Assembly (NCBI GenBank): GCA_036166315.1
Contig: JAYZHS010000068.1
Coordinates: forward strand, 1-45,882
Origin: Fidelibacterota bacterium
GTDB taxonomy: Bacteria > Fidelibacterota > Marinisomatia > Marinisomatales > TCS55
Direction of reading: 5' to 3'
Length of the DNA: 45,882 nucleotides
Below are positions 16,095 through 22,789 of this stretch, in pieces (within the stretch, counting starts at the first letter, position 1; each line of letters opens with the position of its first letter). The position numbers and the translations under genes are program-made. Under the pieces are notes generated by a model. That model was not told where the DNA came from and did not search any database. It saw nothing but the letters and a program-made list of their open reading frames with translations.

Positions 16095-17540
16095 TTGTAT
16101 AGAAAAAAAATCATCCCTATTTATTTGATACTTATATTTTTTGGCTTTCACTCAGTTTTTAGTCAGTATAATTATCAGACTGATTTTCCACCAGAGGAAT
16201 TTAAAAGCCGCTGGCAGGGTGTTTTTGAGAAAATTGGAGATAATGGCATAGCTATCATCCAAGGATTCCCTCAGCCCAATGGGTATATCATGCCGAGACA
16301 GACCAATGCATTCTATTACCTTTCTGGAATTGAAACTCCTCATTCTTACCTGGTTTTAGATGGCCGAAGCAAGCAAGCAACGCTTTACATGCCTCCCGCA
16401 AACAAAAAACTGGAAAAAAGCGAAGGCAAAGTTCTGAGCTCAAATGATGGCCCTTTAATCAAAAAGCTTGTTGGTGTAGATCAAGTCAAGTCAACCAATG
16501 ATATGAAAAATAATTTTCCACCTAATTTGAAAAGAAGTGATATCCTCTATACAATGTTTACCCCAGCAGAGGGCCAAGGTCAAAGTCGCTATGAACTTGA
16601 GGTTGCTAATGCATCTATCGCTAAAGATTATTGGGATGGGCGTTCAAGCAGAGAAAGTAGATTGGTGGAGCTATTGCGTAATCGCAACCCCAGGAATGAA
16701 GTTAGGGATTTAACTTCTGTAATTGATGGATTAAGAAGTGTAAAAAGCCCAAAAGAAGTTGCGCTAATTCGAAGAGCATCTCAATTAGCGGGCCTTGCAA
16801 TGATTGAAGCGATACGAAGCACTGAAGTAGGTGTTTGGGAATATCAACTTGACGGAGTAGCGAGATACATTTTTTTAATCAATGGGTCTAGAATGGAAGC
16901 CTATCGGTCGATAACAGCATCCGGGGTTAAAAATATTAGTAATGGCCACTATTATCGTAATAACAGCCAATTAAAAGATGGCGACTTGGTGTTGATGGAC
17001 TATGCCCCAGACTTTAGGTATTACGTTAGCGATATTGGAAGAATGTGGCCAGTGAATGGTACCTATCAGCCTTGGCAAAGAGAATTGCTTCAAATTATTT
17101 TGGAATATCGAAATGTAGTATTAGATATACTGAGACCAGGAATTACTACCGATCAAGTATTAGAAGAAGCGCGTGAAAAAATGCAACCAATCATGCGAAA
17201 GTACCAATTTTCAAAAAATATTTATCGAAAAGCAGCTGAAAAAATGATTCAAACGGGTGGCGGAGTTCTTTCGCATCCGGTTGGACTGGCAGTACATGAT
17301 GATGGCCCCTACCGCTATGGACCGCTAAAAGTTGGACATGTGTTTGCAGTAGATCCGCAAATGTGGGTTCCTGAAGAAAATTTATATTTACGCTATGAAG
17401 ACACAATTGTAATTACGGAAGATGGGAATGAAAACTTTACTGATTTTTTACCCTCAGAGCTCAATGAATTGGAAGACCTGGTTAAAGAAAAAGGAATTTT
17501 ACAGAGCGTGGGACCAGATTCAATGCGCTGGGATTATTAA
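16095..17540 (+). CDS. Secreted Xaa-Pro aminopeptidase (peptidase M24B with AMP_N domain)
   Basis: TTG start and signal peptide IYLILIFFGFHSVFSQ. AMP_N motif QTNAFYYLSGIETPHSYLVLDG. M24 metal ligands in LVLMDYAPDFRYYVSDIGRMWPVNG, SHPVGLAVHD and YEDTIVIT. Confidence 0.85.
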   Translation: MYRKKIIPIYLILIFFGFHSVFSQYNYQTDFPPEEFKSRWQGVFEKIGDNGIAIIQGFPQPNGYIMPRQTNAFYYLSGIETPHSYLVLDGRSKQATLYMPPANKKLEKSEGKVLSSNDGPLIKKLVGVDQVKSTNDMKNNFPPNLKRSDILYTMFTPAEGQGQSRYELEVANASIAKDYWDGRSSRESRLVELLRNRNPRNEVRDLTSVIDGLRSVKSPKEVALIRRASQLAGLAMIEAIRSTEVGVWEYQLDGVARYIFLINGSRMEAYRSITASGVKNISNGHYYRNNSQLKDGDLVLMDYAPDFRYYVSDIGRMWPVNGTYQPWQRELLQIILEYRNVVLDILRPGITTDQVLEEAREKMQPIMRKYQFSKNIYRKAAEKMIQTGGGVLSHPVGLAVHDDGPYRYGPLKVGHVFAVDPQMWVPEENLYLRYEDTIVITEDGNENFTDFLPSELNELEDLVKEKGILQSVGPDSMRWDY

Positions 17541-17541
17541 A

Positions 17542-18060
17542 ATGGATGAATTAATCAATGAATTAAAAGAACTTTCGATGAATAATTTTCCAAACGAGAA
17601 GGTTTATGATTTACTTGAAAATTCACATTTGGACCATAAAGATATAGAAGATTATATTCAATTTAGCGAAGAAAAATATACGCGCCACCTAATCTATAAA
17701 GATAACAATTTTGAGCTACTGTTAATGTGCTGGAAGTCTGGACAAAAAGCACCGATACATGGACATGAAGGTGAAAAGTGTTTTATGCGGGTAGAAAAAG
17801 GCGCCCTTCAGTTTACCAATTACAACTTAGTTTCTACCGATCCTCTTAAATTGACAAAAATAGAATCCTTGAAAGGTGAGGTTGGGTTTTTAGATGGACC
17901 TGCAGATGTGCATTCGGTCGAAAATATTTACAGTGAAGATTCTATCACGTTTCATATTTACGCAAAACCGTACAGCGCTTGTGACATTTACGATATAAAT
18001 ACGGGCAGTATTTATCGCAAGGAACTAACCTACGATTCCATGTTTAAGAAAGCTTGCTAA
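17542..18060 (+). CDS. Cysteine dioxygenase type I (cupin), 172 aa
   Basis: I chose Met41 of the listed ORF, an ATG 1 nt after the aminopeptidase stop. Collinear with mammalian CDO motifs: YTRHLI (YTRNLV), LLLMCW, PIHGHEGEKCF (IHDHTDSHCF), VHSVEN (LHRVEN), FHIY (LHLY). Confidence 0.75.
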   Translation: MDELINELKELSMNNFPNEKVYDLLENSHLDHKDIEDYIQFSEEKYTRHLIYKDNNFELLLMCWKSGQKAPIHGHEGEKCFMRVEKGALQFTNYNLVSTDPLKLTKIESLKGEVGFLDGPADVHSVENIYSEDSITFHIYAKPYSACDIYDINTGSIYRKELTYDSMFKKAC

Positions 18061-18266
18061 GTCATAAGTGATCTATTAAAAAGAATTAATGGGCAGGCAA
18101 TTCATTCAAGAAGGAGAGAGTGAATAAATAAACAGAAGTTTTATAGCCTACCCATTAAAGTGCATAAATAATACTAAAATATACTAAATAATATAATATT
18201 ATTAGTATAATATAGTAAAATAATGTACTATTCCACTATTAAATTAACAGAAATTATATAAAAAGC

Positions 18267-19529
18267 ATGAATCGCTCAGAAATCTTTATCTTTCTACTAG
18301 GCAAAAAACCTTGGACAGACTACGAATGGGAAAAACAAACAGGTATTACCCGTGCAACGTTTGGCAATAATCGAAAAAATAGCGGTAAAAATGTTAAGGC
18401 AAAAACATTAGAGGTGATGGCAGGGGTATGTGGCTATAAATTAATGCATTCTAATGCAAAAGACGGAATAGGTCCCAATGATAGCGAAGCACAATTCCAG
18501 CTAGATGAAAATCAAATTGAAAAAATAAGAATAGGCCTTTTTGGTTTTGGGCGTATTGGAAGAAATATTTTCCGCATAGGATACAATGACCCTCGCTTTG
18601 AATTTGTTGCGATCAGCGATCTTGGCAATGTAGAGGCTATGCATTATCTTTTAATGAGAGATTCCATTCATGGAGCTATGCAAGACGATATTATTCTTGA
18701 AGGTAAAGACCTTATATATAAAGACTCAAAGACAAGATTACTTCCAGGTGCCGCACCTGGCAGTATCCCATGGGATGCATTTGATGTTGATCTAGTAATT
18801 GACTCCACCGGTGCTTATAGAAAAAAAGACGAGTTGCAATTGCATATTGATTCAGGGGCTAAGCGTGTATTGGTTTCTAAACCACCAATCAATGAAATTG
18901 ATCGAGTAGTTATTCAAGGCGTCAATCATAATGATATTCAATATAGCGATAAAATTATTTCCACTACATCATCAACAACTCAAGTTCTCGCCTTAATGAT
19001 GAAAATACTAGATGGGTCTTTCGGTGTTGATCGGGCGATGATGACAACGGTACATGCTTACACGTCAGATCAGCCCCTTGCTGATGCTGTCAGATCTGAC
19101 TTAAGACGTAGCCGTTCGGCCGTAGAAAATATTATTCCCAATGAAACCTGGGCTCCAGAATATGTTTCTCAGTTAATGCCAAAGTTCAAAGATAAAATTT
19201 CTGGTATTGCGATGAATGTGCCTGTCGCCAATGGATCATGCATTGATTTAACCACGGAAATGAAGAAAATGCCAACGGTTGATGAGGTAAATAAATGCTT
19301 TGAAGACGCAAGTTTAAATAATTTTAAAGGACTGGTGCGATATACAGAGGATCCAATTGTCTCTAGCGATGCGATTGGCGGAGGAGAGACCATGTTATTT
19401 GATAGCCAAGCTACAATGATTGCATCAAACAAACTTTTAAAGACTATTGCTTGGTTTGACAATGGATGGGGATTTGCATCTAGAATTCTTGAACTAGCAG
19501 AGTCTTACTCCCAATTGGAGAGAAGTTAA
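18267..19529 (+). CDS. GAPDH-fold paralogue lacking catalytic residues, with an N-terminal ~85-aa XRE-like HTH extension (putative regulator)
   Basis: Residues ~86-420 align throughout with the downstream GAPDH. GFGRIGR and TVHAYT are kept. SCTTNC is replaced by SSTTQV (Ser236, TCA 18972..18974), TTGAA by ETWAP, and the RVP Arg by Asn317 (19215..19217). The N-terminal stretch WTDYEWEKQTGITRATFGNNRKNSGKNVKAKTLEVMAGVCGYKL has HTH spacing. Confidence 0.7.
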   Translation: MNRSEIFIFLLGKKPWTDYEWEKQTGITRATFGNNRKNSGKNVKAKTLEVMAGVCGYKLMHSNAKDGIGPNDSEAQFQLDENQIEKIRIGLFGFGRIGRNIFRIGYNDPRFEFVAISDLGNVEAMHYLLMRDSIHGAMQDDIILEGKDLIYKDSKTRLLPGAAPGSIPWDAFDVDLVIDSTGAYRKKDELQLHIDSGAKRVLVSKPPINEIDRVVIQGVNHNDIQYSDKIISTTSSTTQVLALMMKILDGSFGVDRAMMTTVHAYTSDQPLADAVRSDLRRSRSAVENIIPNETWAPEYVSQLMPKFKDKISGIAMNVPVANGSCIDLTTEMKKMPTVDEVNKCFEDASLNNFKGLVRYTEDPIVSSDAIGGGETMLFDSQATMIASNKLLKTIAWFDNGWGFASRILELAESYSQLERS

Positions 19530-19530
19530 G

Positions 19531-20532
19531 ATGCGAGTTGCAATCAATGGTTTTGGACGTATTGGACGTTCAGTTTTTAGAATTCTAAATTTTAGAGAAA
19601 ATTTTGACGTAGTTGCAATCAATGACATTGCAGATAATGAAGCTATGGCCTATTTGCTCAAGTATGACACGGTAATGGGGCCATTTAATGATTTAGTAGA
19701 AATCAAAGGGGATGTGCTTAATACTTCTCACAACGCTGTTAAAATGCTAGCTGAAAAAGATCCAAATCAATTACCATGGGGGGAAATGGGTGTTGACGTT
19801 GTCATTGAATCTACCGGAATATTTAGAACAAAAAATGAGCTAGAGCAGCATTTGCGCTCTGGTGCTAAAAAAGTAATATTAACTGTTCCCTCTAAAGATG
19901 AAATTGACTATACCTTGGTAATTGGTGTAAACGATGGCGGGTTAACCGATGAGCATAAAATCATTTCAAATGCGAGCTGCACAACTAATTGCCTTGCGCC
20001 GATCGCTAAAATCTTAAACGATAATTATGGAATTGAGTATGGGGTGATTAATACGATCCATGCATATACAAACGATCAACGCCTTGCAGATGTACCCCAT
20101 TCAGACTGGAGAAGAAGTCGCGCTGCTGCTGAAAATATTATTCCCACCACTACTGGGGCAGCGCGAGCAGTTGGCAAAGTACTTCCAGAGCTAGACGGGA
20201 AACTTGATGGAATCGCAATGCGCGTTCCGGTTCCTGACGGCTCTGTTGTAGATAGTGTATTTCGTTTAGAAAAACGTGTTACTACCGATGAGATAAATCA
20301 AATGGTTAAACATGCCGCAGATGAACCTAGCATGAGATCTGTAATGGAATATTCTACCCTACCTGTTGTTTCAACAGATATTATTGGTAATCCGCATTCC
20401 TCGATCTTTGATGCACCTTTCACCAAGGTTATTGATGGGACTTTAGTTAAAACCGTTAATTGGTATGATAATGAGTGGGGATACTCAAATCGTGTTGTAG
20501 ATTTAGTCAGTATTTTAAAAAAGTTTAATTAA
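19531..20532 (+). CDS. gap: Glyceraldehyde-3-phosphate dehydrogenase, type I
   Basis: INGFGRIGR, active site SNASCTTNCLAP, TIHAYTNDQ, IIPTTTGAARAVGKVLP, AMRVPVPDGS, WYDNEWGYS. Confidence 0.95.
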   Translation: MRVAINGFGRIGRSVFRILNFRENFDVVAINDIADNEAMAYLLKYDTVMGPFNDLVEIKGDVLNTSHNAVKMLAEKDPNQLPWGEMGVDVVIESTGIFRTKNELEQHLRSGAKKVILTVPSKDEIDYTLVIGVNDGGLTDEHKIISNASCTTNCLAPIAKILNDNYGIEYGVINTIHAYTNDQRLADVPHSDWRRSRAAAENIIPTTTGAARAVGKVLPELDGKLDGIAMRVPVPDGSVVDSVFRLEKRVTTDEINQMVKHAADEPSMRSVMEYSTLPVVSTDIIGNPHSSIFDAPFTKVIDGTLVKTVNWYDNEWGYSNRVVDLVSILKKFN

Positions 20533-20554: not shown

Positions 20555-21748
20555 ATGAAAATTGCCTTTCTTACCGCTGGCGGTATTGCACCGTGTCTTT
20601 CTGCTTCTATGGGTGGATTAATTGAAGCCTATAATATTTTAGCGCCAGATGCTGAACTAATTGGTTATTTAAATGGGTACAAAGGACTTCTAACCAATCA
20701 AAGCATAGCTATACCTGAATCTGTAAAAGGAAAATCCAATACTCTATATAACTTTGGCGGAAGCCCCATAGGTAATAGTCGAGTTAAATTAACTAACGTT
20801 GAAAATTGTATTAAAAAAGGATACATAAAAGAAGGTGAAAATCCTCTTCAAGTTGCCGCCCAACAATTGGTAAATGATGAGGTTGATATCCTGCATACCA
20901 TTGGTGGCGATGATACCAATACGATGGCAGCTGAGCTTTCATTTTATTTAAAAGAAAATAATTATGAATTAACTGTTGTGGGGCTACCTAAAACTGTTGA
21001 TAATGATGTTTTTCCTATCGCCCAAACCTTGGGAGCGTATACCGCTGCAGAGCAGGGTGCTATTTTCTTTGAAAATATTTCCAATGAAAATACTACAAGT
21101 TCACGTCAATTAATCATTCACGAAATTATGGGAAGAAGTTGTGGGTGGCTCACTGCTTATACAGCCAAAGAGTATAGATCTAGATTAAGTCAAAGAGAAT
21201 TTCTACCCGAGATCCTTATCGATCAGCAGCGTTGGGATATTGATGCCGTCTATGTGCCTGAAATGCCTATTGATTTTAGCTTAGAGTGTGAACGCCTCAC
21301 AAAAAGAATGGATGAAAAAGATTCGGTCAATATTTTCTTAAGTGAAGGCGCTGGAACCGAGACGATCATTAATGAATTAGAGTCTGAAGGTAAGCATGTG
21401 GAGCGAGATGCTTTTGGCCATGTTGCGTTGGACTCTTTAAATCCAGGGCAATGGTTTGCTAAACGGTTTACTGAAAAACTTTCTGCAGATAAAACCTTGG
21501 TTCAAAAAAGTGGCTATTTTGCTAGGAGCGCTGCTCCAAATGCAAGAGATTTAGAGCTGATACAATCATCCTGTAAGCTTGCTGGAGAATATGCTTTAAA
21601 TAAACAAAGCGGCGTGGTTGGATTAGATGATGCGAATAATAACAAAATGAGTTTAATTGATTTTAAAAGAATCAAGGGCGGTAAGCCATTTGACATAAAC
21701 CAAGAATGGTACACATCTCTGCTTACTGAAATTGGTCAACATAAATAA
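20555..21748 (+). CDS. pfp: Pyrophosphate-dependent 6-phosphofructokinase
   Basis: PFK-fold motifs GGDDTNT (Asp where ATP-PFKs have the Gly of GGDGS) and PKTVDND (Lys where ATP-PFKs have the Gly of PGTIDND). This is the classical PPi-specificity pair. MGR motif present. Confidence 0.85.
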   Translation: MKIAFLTAGGIAPCLSASMGGLIEAYNILAPDAELIGYLNGYKGLLTNQSIAIPESVKGKSNTLYNFGGSPIGNSRVKLTNVENCIKKGYIKEGENPLQVAAQQLVNDEVDILHTIGGDDTNTMAAELSFYLKENNYELTVVGLPKTVDNDVFPIAQTLGAYTAAEQGAIFFENISNENTTSSRQLIIHEIMGRSCGWLTAYTAKEYRSRLSQREFLPEILIDQQRWDIDAVYVPEMPIDFSLECERLTKRMDEKDSVNIFLSEGAGTETIINELESEGKHVERDAFGHVALDSLNPGQWFAKRFTEKLSADKTLVQKSGYFARSAAPNARDLELIQSSCKLAGEYALNKQSGVVGLDDANNNKMSLIDFKRIKGGKPFDINQEWYTSLLTEIGQHK

Positions 21749-21763
21749 AATATAGGATTAAAA

Positions 21764-22789
21764 ATGAGTCTGAATTTAGATAATATGAATGATGTAGCAG
21801 AGGCAATGACCGCTTCTGGTAAAGGAATACTTGCAGCGGATGAAAGCACAGGAACGATCGGTAAGCGTTTAGATCAAATCAATACCGAGAGCACAGAGCA
21901 GACAAGAAACGCGTATCGAGACTTGCTTTTTACAGCTGATGGCCTTAATCAATATATAAGCGGTGTGATTATGTATGATGAAACGTTTCATCAATCTTCT
22001 TTAGATGGAGGTGTTGTTTATCCTGAATATTTAGCTTCAAAAGGAATTATTCCTGGAATAAAAGTTGATGCAGGCGCTCATAACCTTTCTGGTTCAGAAG
22101 ATGAAAAGATTACCCTTGGTCTTGATGGCCTTGATGAGAGATTAAGCAATTATAGAAAATTAGGTGCTCGATTTGCAAAATGGAGAGCAGTGATTAATAT
22201 TACAGAGCTAAACCCTAGCGATTATTGTATCAAAGCAAATGCGCATGCCTTGGCAAGATATGCAGCCCTATGTCAGTCAAATGATGTTGTGCCAATTGTA
22301 GAGCCTGAGATTTTAATGGATGGCGGTCATGATATTGAAGATAGCTTTGTTGTAACGGAAGAAGTCCTGCATACTGTTTTTGATGAGCTTTATACGCAAG
22401 GTGTTCAGTATGAGGAGATGGTTTTAAAGCCCAATATGGTCTTATCAGGGTACGACGCAAATGATAGAGCTGGGGTTGATGAGGTTGCATCCGCAACTGT
22501 TCAATGCTTTTTAAGAAGTGTGCCTGCTGCGGTTCCTGGAATTGCATTCTTATCAGGAGGCCAATCCGATGAAGACGCAACTGCGCATTTAAATGCCATG
22601 AATCAGATTTTGGGTGATAATAAACCTTGGCATCTTTCATTTTCTTATGGTCGTGCTCTTCAACAACCTGCCTTAAAAGCATGGCAAGGGTCAGGCGAAA
22701 ATATTTCAAACGCGCAAGCAGCGCTCATGAAAAGAGCCAAGCTTAATAGCCTGGCAACGCAAGGTAAATACTCAACCGATTTAGAATAA
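21764..22789 (+). CDS. fba: Fructose-bisphosphate aldolase, class I (eukaryote-type, Schiff base)
   Basis: GILAADESTGTIGKRL, VVPIVEPEIL, Schiff-base Lys context MVLKPNMV, FLSGGQS, SFSYGRALQ. Confidence 0.9.
   Translation: MSLNLDNMNDVAEAMTASGKGILAADESTGTIGKRLDQINTESTEQTRNAYRDLLFTADGLNQYISGVIMYDETFHQSSLDGGVVYPEYLASKGIIPGIKVDAGAHNLSGSEDEKITLGLDGLDERLSNYRKLGARFAKWRAVINITELNPSDYCIKANAHALARYAALCQSNDVVPIVEPEILMDGGHDIEDSFVVTEEVLHTVFDELYTQGVQYEEMVLKPNMVLSGYDANDRAGVDEVASATVQCFLRSVPAAVPGIAFLSGGQSDEDATAHLNAMNQILGDNKPWHLSFSYGRALQQPALKAWQGSGENISNAQAALMKRAKLNSLATQGKYSTDLE

Follow-up and report, generated by a model that had tools for sequence, protein, structure and literature searches.

A predicted helix-turn-helix domain on a noncatalytic glyceraldehyde-3-phosphate dehydrogenase paralog heading a glycolytic operon of Marinimicrobia

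The first gene of a glycolytic operon on contig JAYZHS010000068.1 of a Fidelibacterota bacterium (assembly GCA_036166315.1; its 45,882 nt are referred to as the window) encodes a 420-aa protein in which a head predicted to fold as a helix-turn-helix (HTH) domain precedes a body that resembles glyceraldehyde-3-phosphate dehydrogenase (GAPDH) and is devoid of the catalytic residues. We call this protein HTH-pseudoGAPDH; its gene occupies positions 18267..19529 on the plus strand, as do the downstream operon genes on their respective positions. With modest confidence, we favor the view that it is a DNA-binding autoregulator seated on an ancient noncatalytic partner subunit of the true GAPDH, Gap, which is encoded directly downstream.

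The GAPDH-like body comprises residues 87 to 420 (18525..19526, plus strand). In a BLASTP comparison, the neighboring Gap (19531..20532, plus strand) aligned with residues 87 to 411 at 40% identity over 326 residues with one gap (E 2e-89), bearing out the end-to-end alignment described in an earlier sequence-only reading of this DNA, and the Pfam domains Gp_dh_N (E 7e-26) and Gp_dh_C (E 1.6e-46) were found along the full GAPDH-like length. With the NCBIfam equivalog model for type I GAPDH (TIGR01534), the protein scored 315.3 bits, which is under the cut-off of 367.2 bits, while its neighbor, a canonical type I GAPDH with the nucleophile Cys, Arg231 and the TTTG loop all present, reached 428.4 bits. 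The catalytic substitutions that had been proposed can be read directly from the DNA: Ser236 (TCA, 18972..18974) occupies the position of the nucleophile Cys149; Asn292 (AAT, 19140..19142) takes the place of Thr207 in IIPT and opens a rewritten Pi loop, NETWAP; and Asn317 (AAT, 19215..19217) stands at the position of Arg231 in the Ps site, all on the plus strand. Written as motifs, SNASCTTNCLAP is changed to STTSSTTQVLAL, and IIPTTTGAARAV to IIPNETWAPEYV.

Of the features that mark a type I GAPDH, the protein thus lacks the nucleophile Cys149, the anion sites Ps and Pi and a score above the equivalog cut-off. Other signatures are kept, namely GFGRIGR and HAYT (His176), as stated before, together with the Asp of ISD (Asp32), RRSR and FDN (Asn313); as far as can be judged from the sequence, the residues of the NAD site (GxGxxG loop, Asp32 and Asn313) as well as His176 are therefore retained, along with the S-loop and the general GAPDH fold. 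A GAPDH without Cys149, Arg231 and the Thr208-Gly209 loop has neither the thiohemiacetal chemistry nor the two phosphate sites. With its thiol nucleophile and both phosphate sites gone, the body is predicted to be unable to oxidize glyceraldehyde-3-phosphate.

A family scan with one genome per GTDB species yielded 79 loci, at identities from 88% down to 41%, which span Marinimicrobia (some records being titled Fidelibacterota), Lentisphaeria, Bacteroidales and Lentimicrobiaceae, plus two metagenome-assembled genomes (MAGs) of gammaproteobacteria. All 79 loci contain a tandem pair of GAPDH-like open reading frames (ORFs), the upstream one being closer to the dead protein of the window and the downstream one being 58 to 87% identical to its true Gap. 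Leaving aside five loci that run into contig ends, the canonical gap gene starts between -4 and +12 nt from the stop codon of the dead gene in 74/74 cases, and in 38 of these the two genes share an ATGA overlap. A second database search, with a Bacteroidales member as the query, revealed a large Bacteroidota branch, MAG-derived throughout, whose members go by the names of GAPDH, hypothetical protein or NAD-binding domain protein. A sequence search of the PDB returned no solved structure of the family, the best matches being ordinary GAPDHs, and full-text searches of the literature for Cys-less or pseudo-GAPDHs, Marinimicrobia GAPDH and bacterial GAPDH heterotetramers found nothing relevant. 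The Cys-less GAPDH paralogs therefore constitute a multi-phylum family that apparently has not been described previously.

To assess conservation, 80 dead sequences were compared with 73 partner Gap sequences. The substituted residues go far beyond chance, being fixed across the 80 homologs: Arg231 is replaced by Asn in 80/80 and Thr207 by Asn in 80/80, and all 80 dead sequences have Asp at a position (His143) where the partners invariably carry His. The nucleophile position, by comparison, is Ala in 46, Ser in 33 and Thr in one of them; given that it alternates in this way, Ser is not a replacement nucleophile. The remainder of the former Pi loop varies, Gly209/210 included. These patterns agree with the loss of dehydrogenase chemistry that had been postulated for the window protein. 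At the same time, the dead and partner sets agree in 67 columns of at least 90% conservation, among them GFGRIGR, Asp32, STG, His176, the S-loop RRSR and ENIIP.

Could the body have acquired a chemistry of its own? One can imagine a thiol-independent, NAD-dependent reaction on a substrate that is not phosphorylated or is bound differently, which would use His176 and the new Asn residues and run in series with Gap; the HTH would then turn the protein into a PutA-like combination of enzyme and regulator. The NAD-site residues and His176 are kept, purifying selection is very strong, and Asn207, Asn231 and the Asp at the partner's His143 position are invariant across phyla, which suggests a new binding site. 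However, Ser, Ala and Thr are all accepted at the nucleophile position, what is left of the former phosphate loop varies, which would be unusual for a catalytic pocket, and some members have lost the third Gly of the dinucleotide loop as well as Asn313; nor did any family match in Pfam, NCBIfam or the PDB point to a chemistry. We consider such a neofunctionalized enzyme quite improbable; a body of this kind would be compatible with the HTH domain.

Judged by the sequences of its members, the dead GAPDH is an old family, most of which has neither an HTH domain nor any other N-terminal extension. The earlier proposal of a local ex-enzyme that was retired for the sake of regulation has to be abandoned on these grounds. 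Since most members are HTH-less and coupled to gap, the ancestral role must have been something other than DNA binding, and it most likely has to do with Gap itself. That the dead gene is invariably adjacent and coupled to gap suggests that its product is a partner of Gap, and we regard the body as most likely being a partner or regulatory subunit of that enzyme.

Several individual members deserve mention in their own right. A gammaproteobacterial representative (Candidatus Azotimanducaceae, L090 3935-4996) carries a short N-terminal tail of PTRKG repeats and no HTH. In a high-GC lineage (P0262, P0263 and P0279), an upstream GAPDH paralog and a canonical gap are merged into a single gene call by apparent frameshifts; the upstream copy in P0262 has kept the Cys (SNASCTAHC) yet already shows the Arg231-to-Asn change and IIPQ, and it may be an intermediate of the dead family. 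The N-termini of the partner Gap proteins are near-identical across phyla (MRVAINGFGRIGR[SA]VFRIL), hinting at horizontal transfer of the pair as a unit.

What sets the window protein apart from most of its family is its N-terminal extension. Its close homologs come from metagenome assemblies of Marinimicrobia (SAR406, Candidatus Neomarinimicrobiota) and fall into two classes, one of 420 aa (76 to 99% identical) and one of 338/339 aa (73 to 76% identical) that is without the N-terminal 86 residues. The motifs STTS[S/A]TTQVLAL, IIPN[E/D]TWAP.YV and A[M/I]NVPVANGSC are fixed among them. The 86-aa extension, which the neighboring Gap also lacks, is confined to one Marinimicrobia subclade, represented by 12 loci and hereafter called the HTH clade. 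Hence, of the recurrence and synteny that the sequence-only reading had asked about, the dead state next to gap recurs at all assessable loci, whereas the fusion to an HTH is a feature of this subclade only. A separate HTH gene upstream of the nearest 338-aa relatives was considered as well and ruled out, as there are just 63 to 73 bp upstream of the gene and tblastn detected no HTH at those loci.

Is the extension made at all? A degenerating gap duplicate or an annotation artifact, either not translated or started only at Met51 or Met60, would be in line with the absence of a Shine-Dalgarno sequence before position 18267 and with the score under the GAPDH equivalog cut-off. Codon-level analysis of four 420-aa genes speaks strongly against it. 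Synonymous sites were saturated (proportion of synonymous differences, pS, 0.56 to 0.86), and the ratio of nonsynonymous to synonymous substitution (dN/dS) was 0.03 to 0.07 for the GAPDH-like body. Residues 1 to 54 of the extension showed a proportion of nonsynonymous differences (pN) of 0.09 to 0.17 and, where computable, a dN/dS of 0.07 to 0.15, compared with 0.25 to 0.48 for residues 55 to 85. Constraint on residues 1 to 54 with a looser stretch behind them is the pattern of a folded domain followed by a linker.

The start codon tells the same story. MNRS is encoded there in 12/12 HTH-clade loci, including that of homolog P0047, which was called as 413 aa and has the MNRS start 21 nt upstream of its called start; all complete close homologs are 420 aa long, and the HTH clade contains no start codon near the domain boundary. 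Codon-level selection and the conserved MNRS start exclude Met51 or Met60 as the origin of the sole product, and selection together with the residues fixed in 80 homologs excludes a decaying duplicate or pseudogene; both had been named in advance as outcomes that would overturn the idea of a regulator. We thus find decay or misannotation hardly credible, and the codon pattern shows an extension that is translated and kept by purifying selection.

As for the fold of this extension, an AlphaFold2 model of residues 1 to 90, built from 15 clade sequences, had a predicted local distance difference test (pLDDT) score of 89. Residues 1 to 56 (18267..18434, plus strand; pLDDT about 93) are modeled with helices at 3-13, 18-25, 29-37 and 45-54 and contain the putative recognition helix TRATFGNNRKN, while residues 57 to 86 (18435..18524, plus strand) are predicted to form a beta-hairpin (57-61 and 77-81) and a variable acidic linker. 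The helices and the hairpin were reproduced in a full-length model, which was left out of the fold search. Foldseek comparison of the head to the PDB returned almost exclusively XRE/Cro-type repressors, namely Stl, HipB, C.Esp1396I, DdrO, SinR and P22 c2, with probabilities of up to 0.94 and root mean square deviations of 2.2 to 2.9 Å over 52 to 55 columns. HipB was also the sole PDB profile match of the head, in register and with an E-value of 0.12, and Pfam HTH_26 was weakly matched by 7/15 clade members (best E 0.012), below its 22-bit cut-off. The region around the putative recognition helix (residues 26 to 48, GITRATFGNNRKNSGKNVKAKTL) has a pI of 12 and is near-invariant. The extension is thus predicted to fold as an XRE/Cro-type HTH, in agreement with what the sequence-only reading had suspected from helix spacing.

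Relatives of the head provided a further lead. A hidden Markov model search of 1.84 billion representative proteins retrieved 21 of them (E 1e-31 to 1e-5). Besides fragments of the fusion, these include P0124 and P0125, proteins of 110 to 113 aa composed of the head and a coiled coil (E 1e-31 and 1e-29), which show the same pattern as the fusion, MNRS...W[TS][DE]YEW..T.[IL]TR.T.GNNR.N. Others, of 263 to 273 aa, also combine the head with a coiled coil and in 3/5 cases possess a PAS domain (P0132, P0135 and P0138; PAS E 1e-7 to 1e-10). By their domain composition, these relatives have transcription-factor architectures, and the fusion looks like a domain swap that put a GAPDH-like body in place of the coiled coil. 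Standalone HTH and coiled-coil genes of the 110-113-aa type are located on short marine contigs of about 1 kb (L091 1-410 and L092 748-1154), where they share an identical ribosome-binding context, AAAAAGAGGTAAAATG.

The HTH-pseudoGAPDH gene is preceded by an A+T-rich intergenic control region of 206 bp (18061..18266), the length given previously, whose final 130 bp are 82% A+T. It harbors a dyad of two arms (18172-18187 and 18202-18217) that are 88% complementary, separated by 14 nt, and each composed of two TAGTA half-sites 10 bp apart. The left arm of this candidate operator, TAGTATATTTTAGTA (18172..18187, minus strand), was detected as inverted repeat I1; the right arm, TAGTATAAT-A-TAGTAAAAT (18202..18221, plus strand), overlaps -10-like TATAAT boxes. 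The right arm lies 54 to 64 nt from the ATG, an offset that is the same in L012, L013, L015 and L052.

Repeats of the TAGTATAAT type occur upstream of the gene in 12/12 HTH-clade loci, and loci without the HTH lack such repeats at this position. Defining a cluster as three or more TAGTATAAT-like 9-mers with at most one mismatch within 80 bp, we found that the only cluster in the whole fetched locus is the one immediately upstream of the gene in 11/12 HTH-clade loci, the 45.9-kb window included; the 604 kb of non-HTH loci contain a single cluster, away from gap. Nine HTH-clade loci share the layout [AATTATACTA]-N16-[TAGTATAAT]-N1-[TAGTATAAT], the inverted copy of which can also be given as ATTATACTA, embedded in variable flanks. 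The inverted copy is offset from the first direct copy by 25 bp in 7/9 of these loci, by 24 bp in L014 and by 35 bp in L010.

The tandem spacing is restricted as well. The window contains two exact copies of TAGTA-N5-TAGTA, both in this intergenic region and on opposite strands, against an expectation of 0.11. The exact pair is found at 8/12 HTH-clade loci and at one standalone HTH gene; in the 12 upstream regions compared with a first-order Markov model of the composition of each 130-bp region, it is present in nine (P 0.0004 to 0.012 each), and among 93 loci it was seen in HTH-bearing ones only, with none in about 600 kb of non-HTH loci. One of the HTH-bearing loci is that of a standalone gene for HTH and coiled coil (L091), which has the same layout upstream, TTATACTAA-N5-TAGTATAAT-N1-TAGTATATT, and P0125 (L092), whose recognition helix differs, has a TAGTC variant at the same spacing ahead of its gene. 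It is only clustering and tandem spacing that are significant, as the single motif is not enriched in the window (30 matches versus 26 expected). Taken by position and distribution, a conserved repeat that is a candidate operator travels with the HTH domain.

A number of observations weigh against an autoregulator that binds these repeats. On the protein side, the window protein itself gave no hit to HTH families (Pfam HTH_3, HTH_26 or HTH_31) in Pfam or NCBIfam, the matches of other clade members stayed below the curated threshold, and the Foldseek E-values of the head were weak (0.2 to 1.5), as is usual for a small domain. The full-length AlphaFold2 model, based on a 21-sequence alignment, had a mean pLDDT of only 66, with much of the catalytic domain below 50, so that the docking of the head is unreadable; we put this down to the shallow alignment and not to disorder. 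A search with a concatenated query recovered no reliable natural fusion of a dead and a live GAPDH, the long matches turning out to be merged gene models in eukaryotes or, in bacteria, frameshift merges whose junctions are garbled (P0262, P0263, P0279 and P0261). On the DNA side, the repeat contains TATAAT, and its signal may in part stem from -10 elements in A+T-rich DNA. A scan of the plus strand of the intergenic region for the sigma-70 consensus placed no promoter, as none of the -35/-10 pairs was convincing. Because the HTH-clade loci share a common origin, their upstream regions do not count as independent samples. Three of them (L008, L016 and L046), which are also without pfp and fba, display a degenerate variant, TTGTATAAT-N1-TAGTATATT-TACTATAAT. 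Finally, unrelated metagenomic DNA often contains the exact 19-mer TAGTATAATNTAGTATAAT, and no HTH or gap gene was near it among the 80 matches listed, all from metagenome contigs. Since TAGTATAATNTAGTATAAT alone is not diagnostic, the argument for an operator rests on position, phasing and uniqueness within the locus.

Some of these points would suit another explanation, according to which the dead paralog is purely a regulatory or scaffold subunit in mixed tetramers with Gap, similar to a prozyme, and tunes the activity, cooperativity or partner binding of Gap, the head being a structural or protein-interaction module that does not bind DNA and the repeats mere promoter elements. XRE-like modules of enzymes need not bind DNA: HppE and MPnS, whose HTH-like domains have a structural role, were also among the Foldseek matches, and the HTH family matches of the head are, as noted, sub-threshold. 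The obligate and translationally coupled pairing with gap in all lineages, most of them HTH-less, and the conservation with Gap of the S-loop and many residues of the interface region likewise fit a subunit of this kind. Against it stand the closest relatives of the head, which are HTH proteins with a coiled coil or with a coiled coil and PAS, and the recurrence of the same repeat architecture ahead of a standalone gene that is otherwise unrelated and has only the HTH in common. Moreover, the repeats form a phased dyad as opposed to a single -10 box, and the region of the recognition helix is basic and invariant. On balance, we deem this alternative rather unlikely. It is compatible with the DNA-binding autoregulator as far as the body is concerned, the two differing on the head only.

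For the DNA-binding autoregulator, we infer the following course of events. The ancestor would have been an HTH-less dead GAPDH paired with gap, to which an XRE/Cro-type HTH was fused N-terminally in one Marinimicrobia subclade; the head would derive from a small regulator made of HTH and coiled coil, with the GAPDH-like body serving as its new multimerization or sensor module. As GAPDHs do, the body would oligomerize, probably together with Gap, and the oligomer would present two to four HTH heads to the four phased TAGTA half-sites. The heads could then bind the dyad of tandem TAGTA(TAAT) half-sites, which are spaced by 10 bp within an arm, the arms being about three helical turns apart. Sites bound in this manner would overlap the -10-like boxes, about 55 to 95 nt before the start codon, and binding would autoregulate HTH-pseudoGAPDH, gap, PPi-dependent phosphofructokinase (PPi, pyrophosphate) and aldolase, most likely by repression.

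The signal would most likely be either the presence of NAD(H) in the retained dinucleotide site or the state of assembly with Gap. Sensing of NAD(H), one of two ligands suggested earlier, is plausible from the retained residues; sensing of triose phosphate, the other one, is unlikely, as the whole family has lost both anion sites. A more far-reaching version can be offered only tentatively and is, in our view, doubtful: many bacteria of the Fibrobacteres-Chlorobi-Bacteroidetes (FCB) group and some others would possess a two-subunit GAPDH, a mixed tetramer of live and ancient dead subunits, and in one abundant marine clade of Marinimicrobia, where the dead subunit also has an HTH, this complex would use the four phased TAGTA half-sites to bind the promoter of the gap-pfp-fba operon that encodes it, thereby coupling NAD(H) or assembly state to transcription.

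The sequence-only reading had drawn analogies to Rex and CggR, which hold at the level of function but not of family membership. Rex is a repressor that senses the NADH/NAD+ redox state and consists of a winged helix and a Rex-specific Rossmann domain, acting as a homodimer on ROP sites. HTH-pseudoGAPDH would resemble it in joining a Rossmann dinucleotide domain to a DNA-binding domain and, plausibly, in relaying an NAD(H) signal to central-metabolism genes; it differs in its XRE-like HTH, its GAPDH fold and its TAGTA repeats, and neither Pfam nor NCBIfam matched it to a Rex or CoA_binding model. CggR, the autoregulated SorC/DeoR-type repressor of the Bacillus gapA operon, senses fructose-1,6-bisphosphate and has no homology to GAPDH. 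By analogy, the gene of either protein comes first in a glycolytic operon that contains gap; a SorC domain was not found in HTH-pseudoGAPDH by Pfam. The chloroplast enzymes GapA and GapB form mixed tetramers, GapB being catalytically active and equipped with a C-terminal CP12-like, redox-regulated extension that acts on the enzyme and not on DNA. Here, too, there are two GAPDH paralogs, one with a terminal regulatory extension, except that this paralog is dead and its extension N-terminal and HTH-like.

With its predicted DNA-binding domain and an enzyme fold without catalytic residues, HTH-pseudoGAPDH has the makeup of an enzyme-derived one-component regulator. The closest known case is BzdR of Azoarcus, a regulator of a catabolic operon in which an XRE-type HTH is combined with an inactive, shikimate-kinase-like effector domain (PMC3602430). 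Both proteins have an N-terminal HTH, a linker and a domain from a central-metabolism enzyme that has lost its activity. They differ in fold, that of BzdR being of the shikimate-kinase (P-loop kinase) type and that of HTH-pseudoGAPDH being a GAPDH fold and likely tetrameric, and in history, as in our case the dead enzyme pre-existed without an HTH, paired with an active paralog that is itself encoded in the operon.

Prozymes, such as that of trypanosomatid AdoMetDC, are dead paralogs that in known cases form an activity-controlling heteromer with the active one (PMC6221367). A dead paralog kept under selection alongside an active one is likewise what we observe, but those cases are eukaryotic, not coupled in an operon and without a DNA-binding domain, and for HTH-pseudoGAPDH the heteromer with Gap is a prediction. 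With HipB, SinR and C.Esp1396I, the best structural matches of residues 1 to 56, the head shares its predicted fold, and with HipB also a beta element after the helices. The candidate site here has tandem direct half-sites within a dyad and is not a simple palindrome; the similarity is sub-threshold, and the multimerizing part is predicted to be GAPDH-like.

What is new here is the enzyme family involved, the dead paralog as a widespread, prior and HTH-less partner of gap, and a candidate operator matched to a tetramer. While GAPDH is among the best-studied enzymes, its dead paralogs are still filed as GAPDH, NAD-binding domain protein or hypothetical protein. Should the dead subunit and Gap form a complex, annotations and metabolic models would count GAPDH twice and miss a layer of regulation in Marinimicrobia (SAR406, abundant in the dark ocean and in oxygen-minimum zones), many Bacteroidota and Lentisphaeria. 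The HTH clade would offer a natural and datable case of a pre-existing pseudoenzyme being recruited into a transcription factor, for which a candidate operator and groups for comparison, that is, HTH-less sisters and standalone HTH relatives, are at hand. It could thus serve as a testable system for the evolution of enzymes into regulators, and for the coupling of redox or flux state to the expression of lower-glycolysis genes in an uncultured lineage.

In the window, gap follows HTH-pseudoGAPDH after 1 nt, a phosphofructokinase gene (20555..21748, plus strand) after another 22 nt and a class I fructose-bisphosphate aldolase gene (21764..22789, plus strand; Pfam Glycolytic, E 6e-139) after another 15 nt, spacings that match those reported before; the aldolase gene is the last of the operon, the next gene being on the opposite strand. 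The phosphofructokinase, identified by Pfam PFK, contains GGDD and PKTVDND in its translation, which we take to be the signatures of PPi-dependent enzymes. The operon therefore combines a PPi-dependent phosphofructokinase and a class I aldolase with two GAPDH paralogs. As a gap-pfp-fba operon, this arrangement is conserved in part: pfp and fba come directly after gap in 8/12 HTH-clade loci and, with about 1.1 kb inserted between gap and pfp (L014 6264-7399), in L014, but in 0/71 non-HTH loci, where pfp, if nearby, is 2 to 3 kb off. In L006 (9500-10526), the aldolase gene shows up as two ORFs, for which an assembly frameshift in a long-read contig is the probable cause.

Upstream of the intergenic region, a cysteine-dioxygenase-like ORF (17422-18060) has, as listed, a 119-nt overlap with the preceding M24 aminopeptidase gene (16095..17540). 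Its relatives are 172 to 177 aa long, so that the true start is probably the internal Met of MDELINEL, near position 17542. Between the stop codon of this ORF and the TAGTA repeats, positions 18086-18158 contain a conserved structured element, AATGGG[C/T]AGG...TCATTCA...GAGAGAG.GAATGA...CCTACCCATTAA, with an RNA fold z-score of -4.1. Rfam matched no family anywhere in the window. Eight related loci share the element, with stems that hardly vary and no more than two covarying pairs, while L008, L010, L016 and L046 do not have it. It may serve the upstream genes as a terminator or insulator, or represent some other RNA or DNA element.

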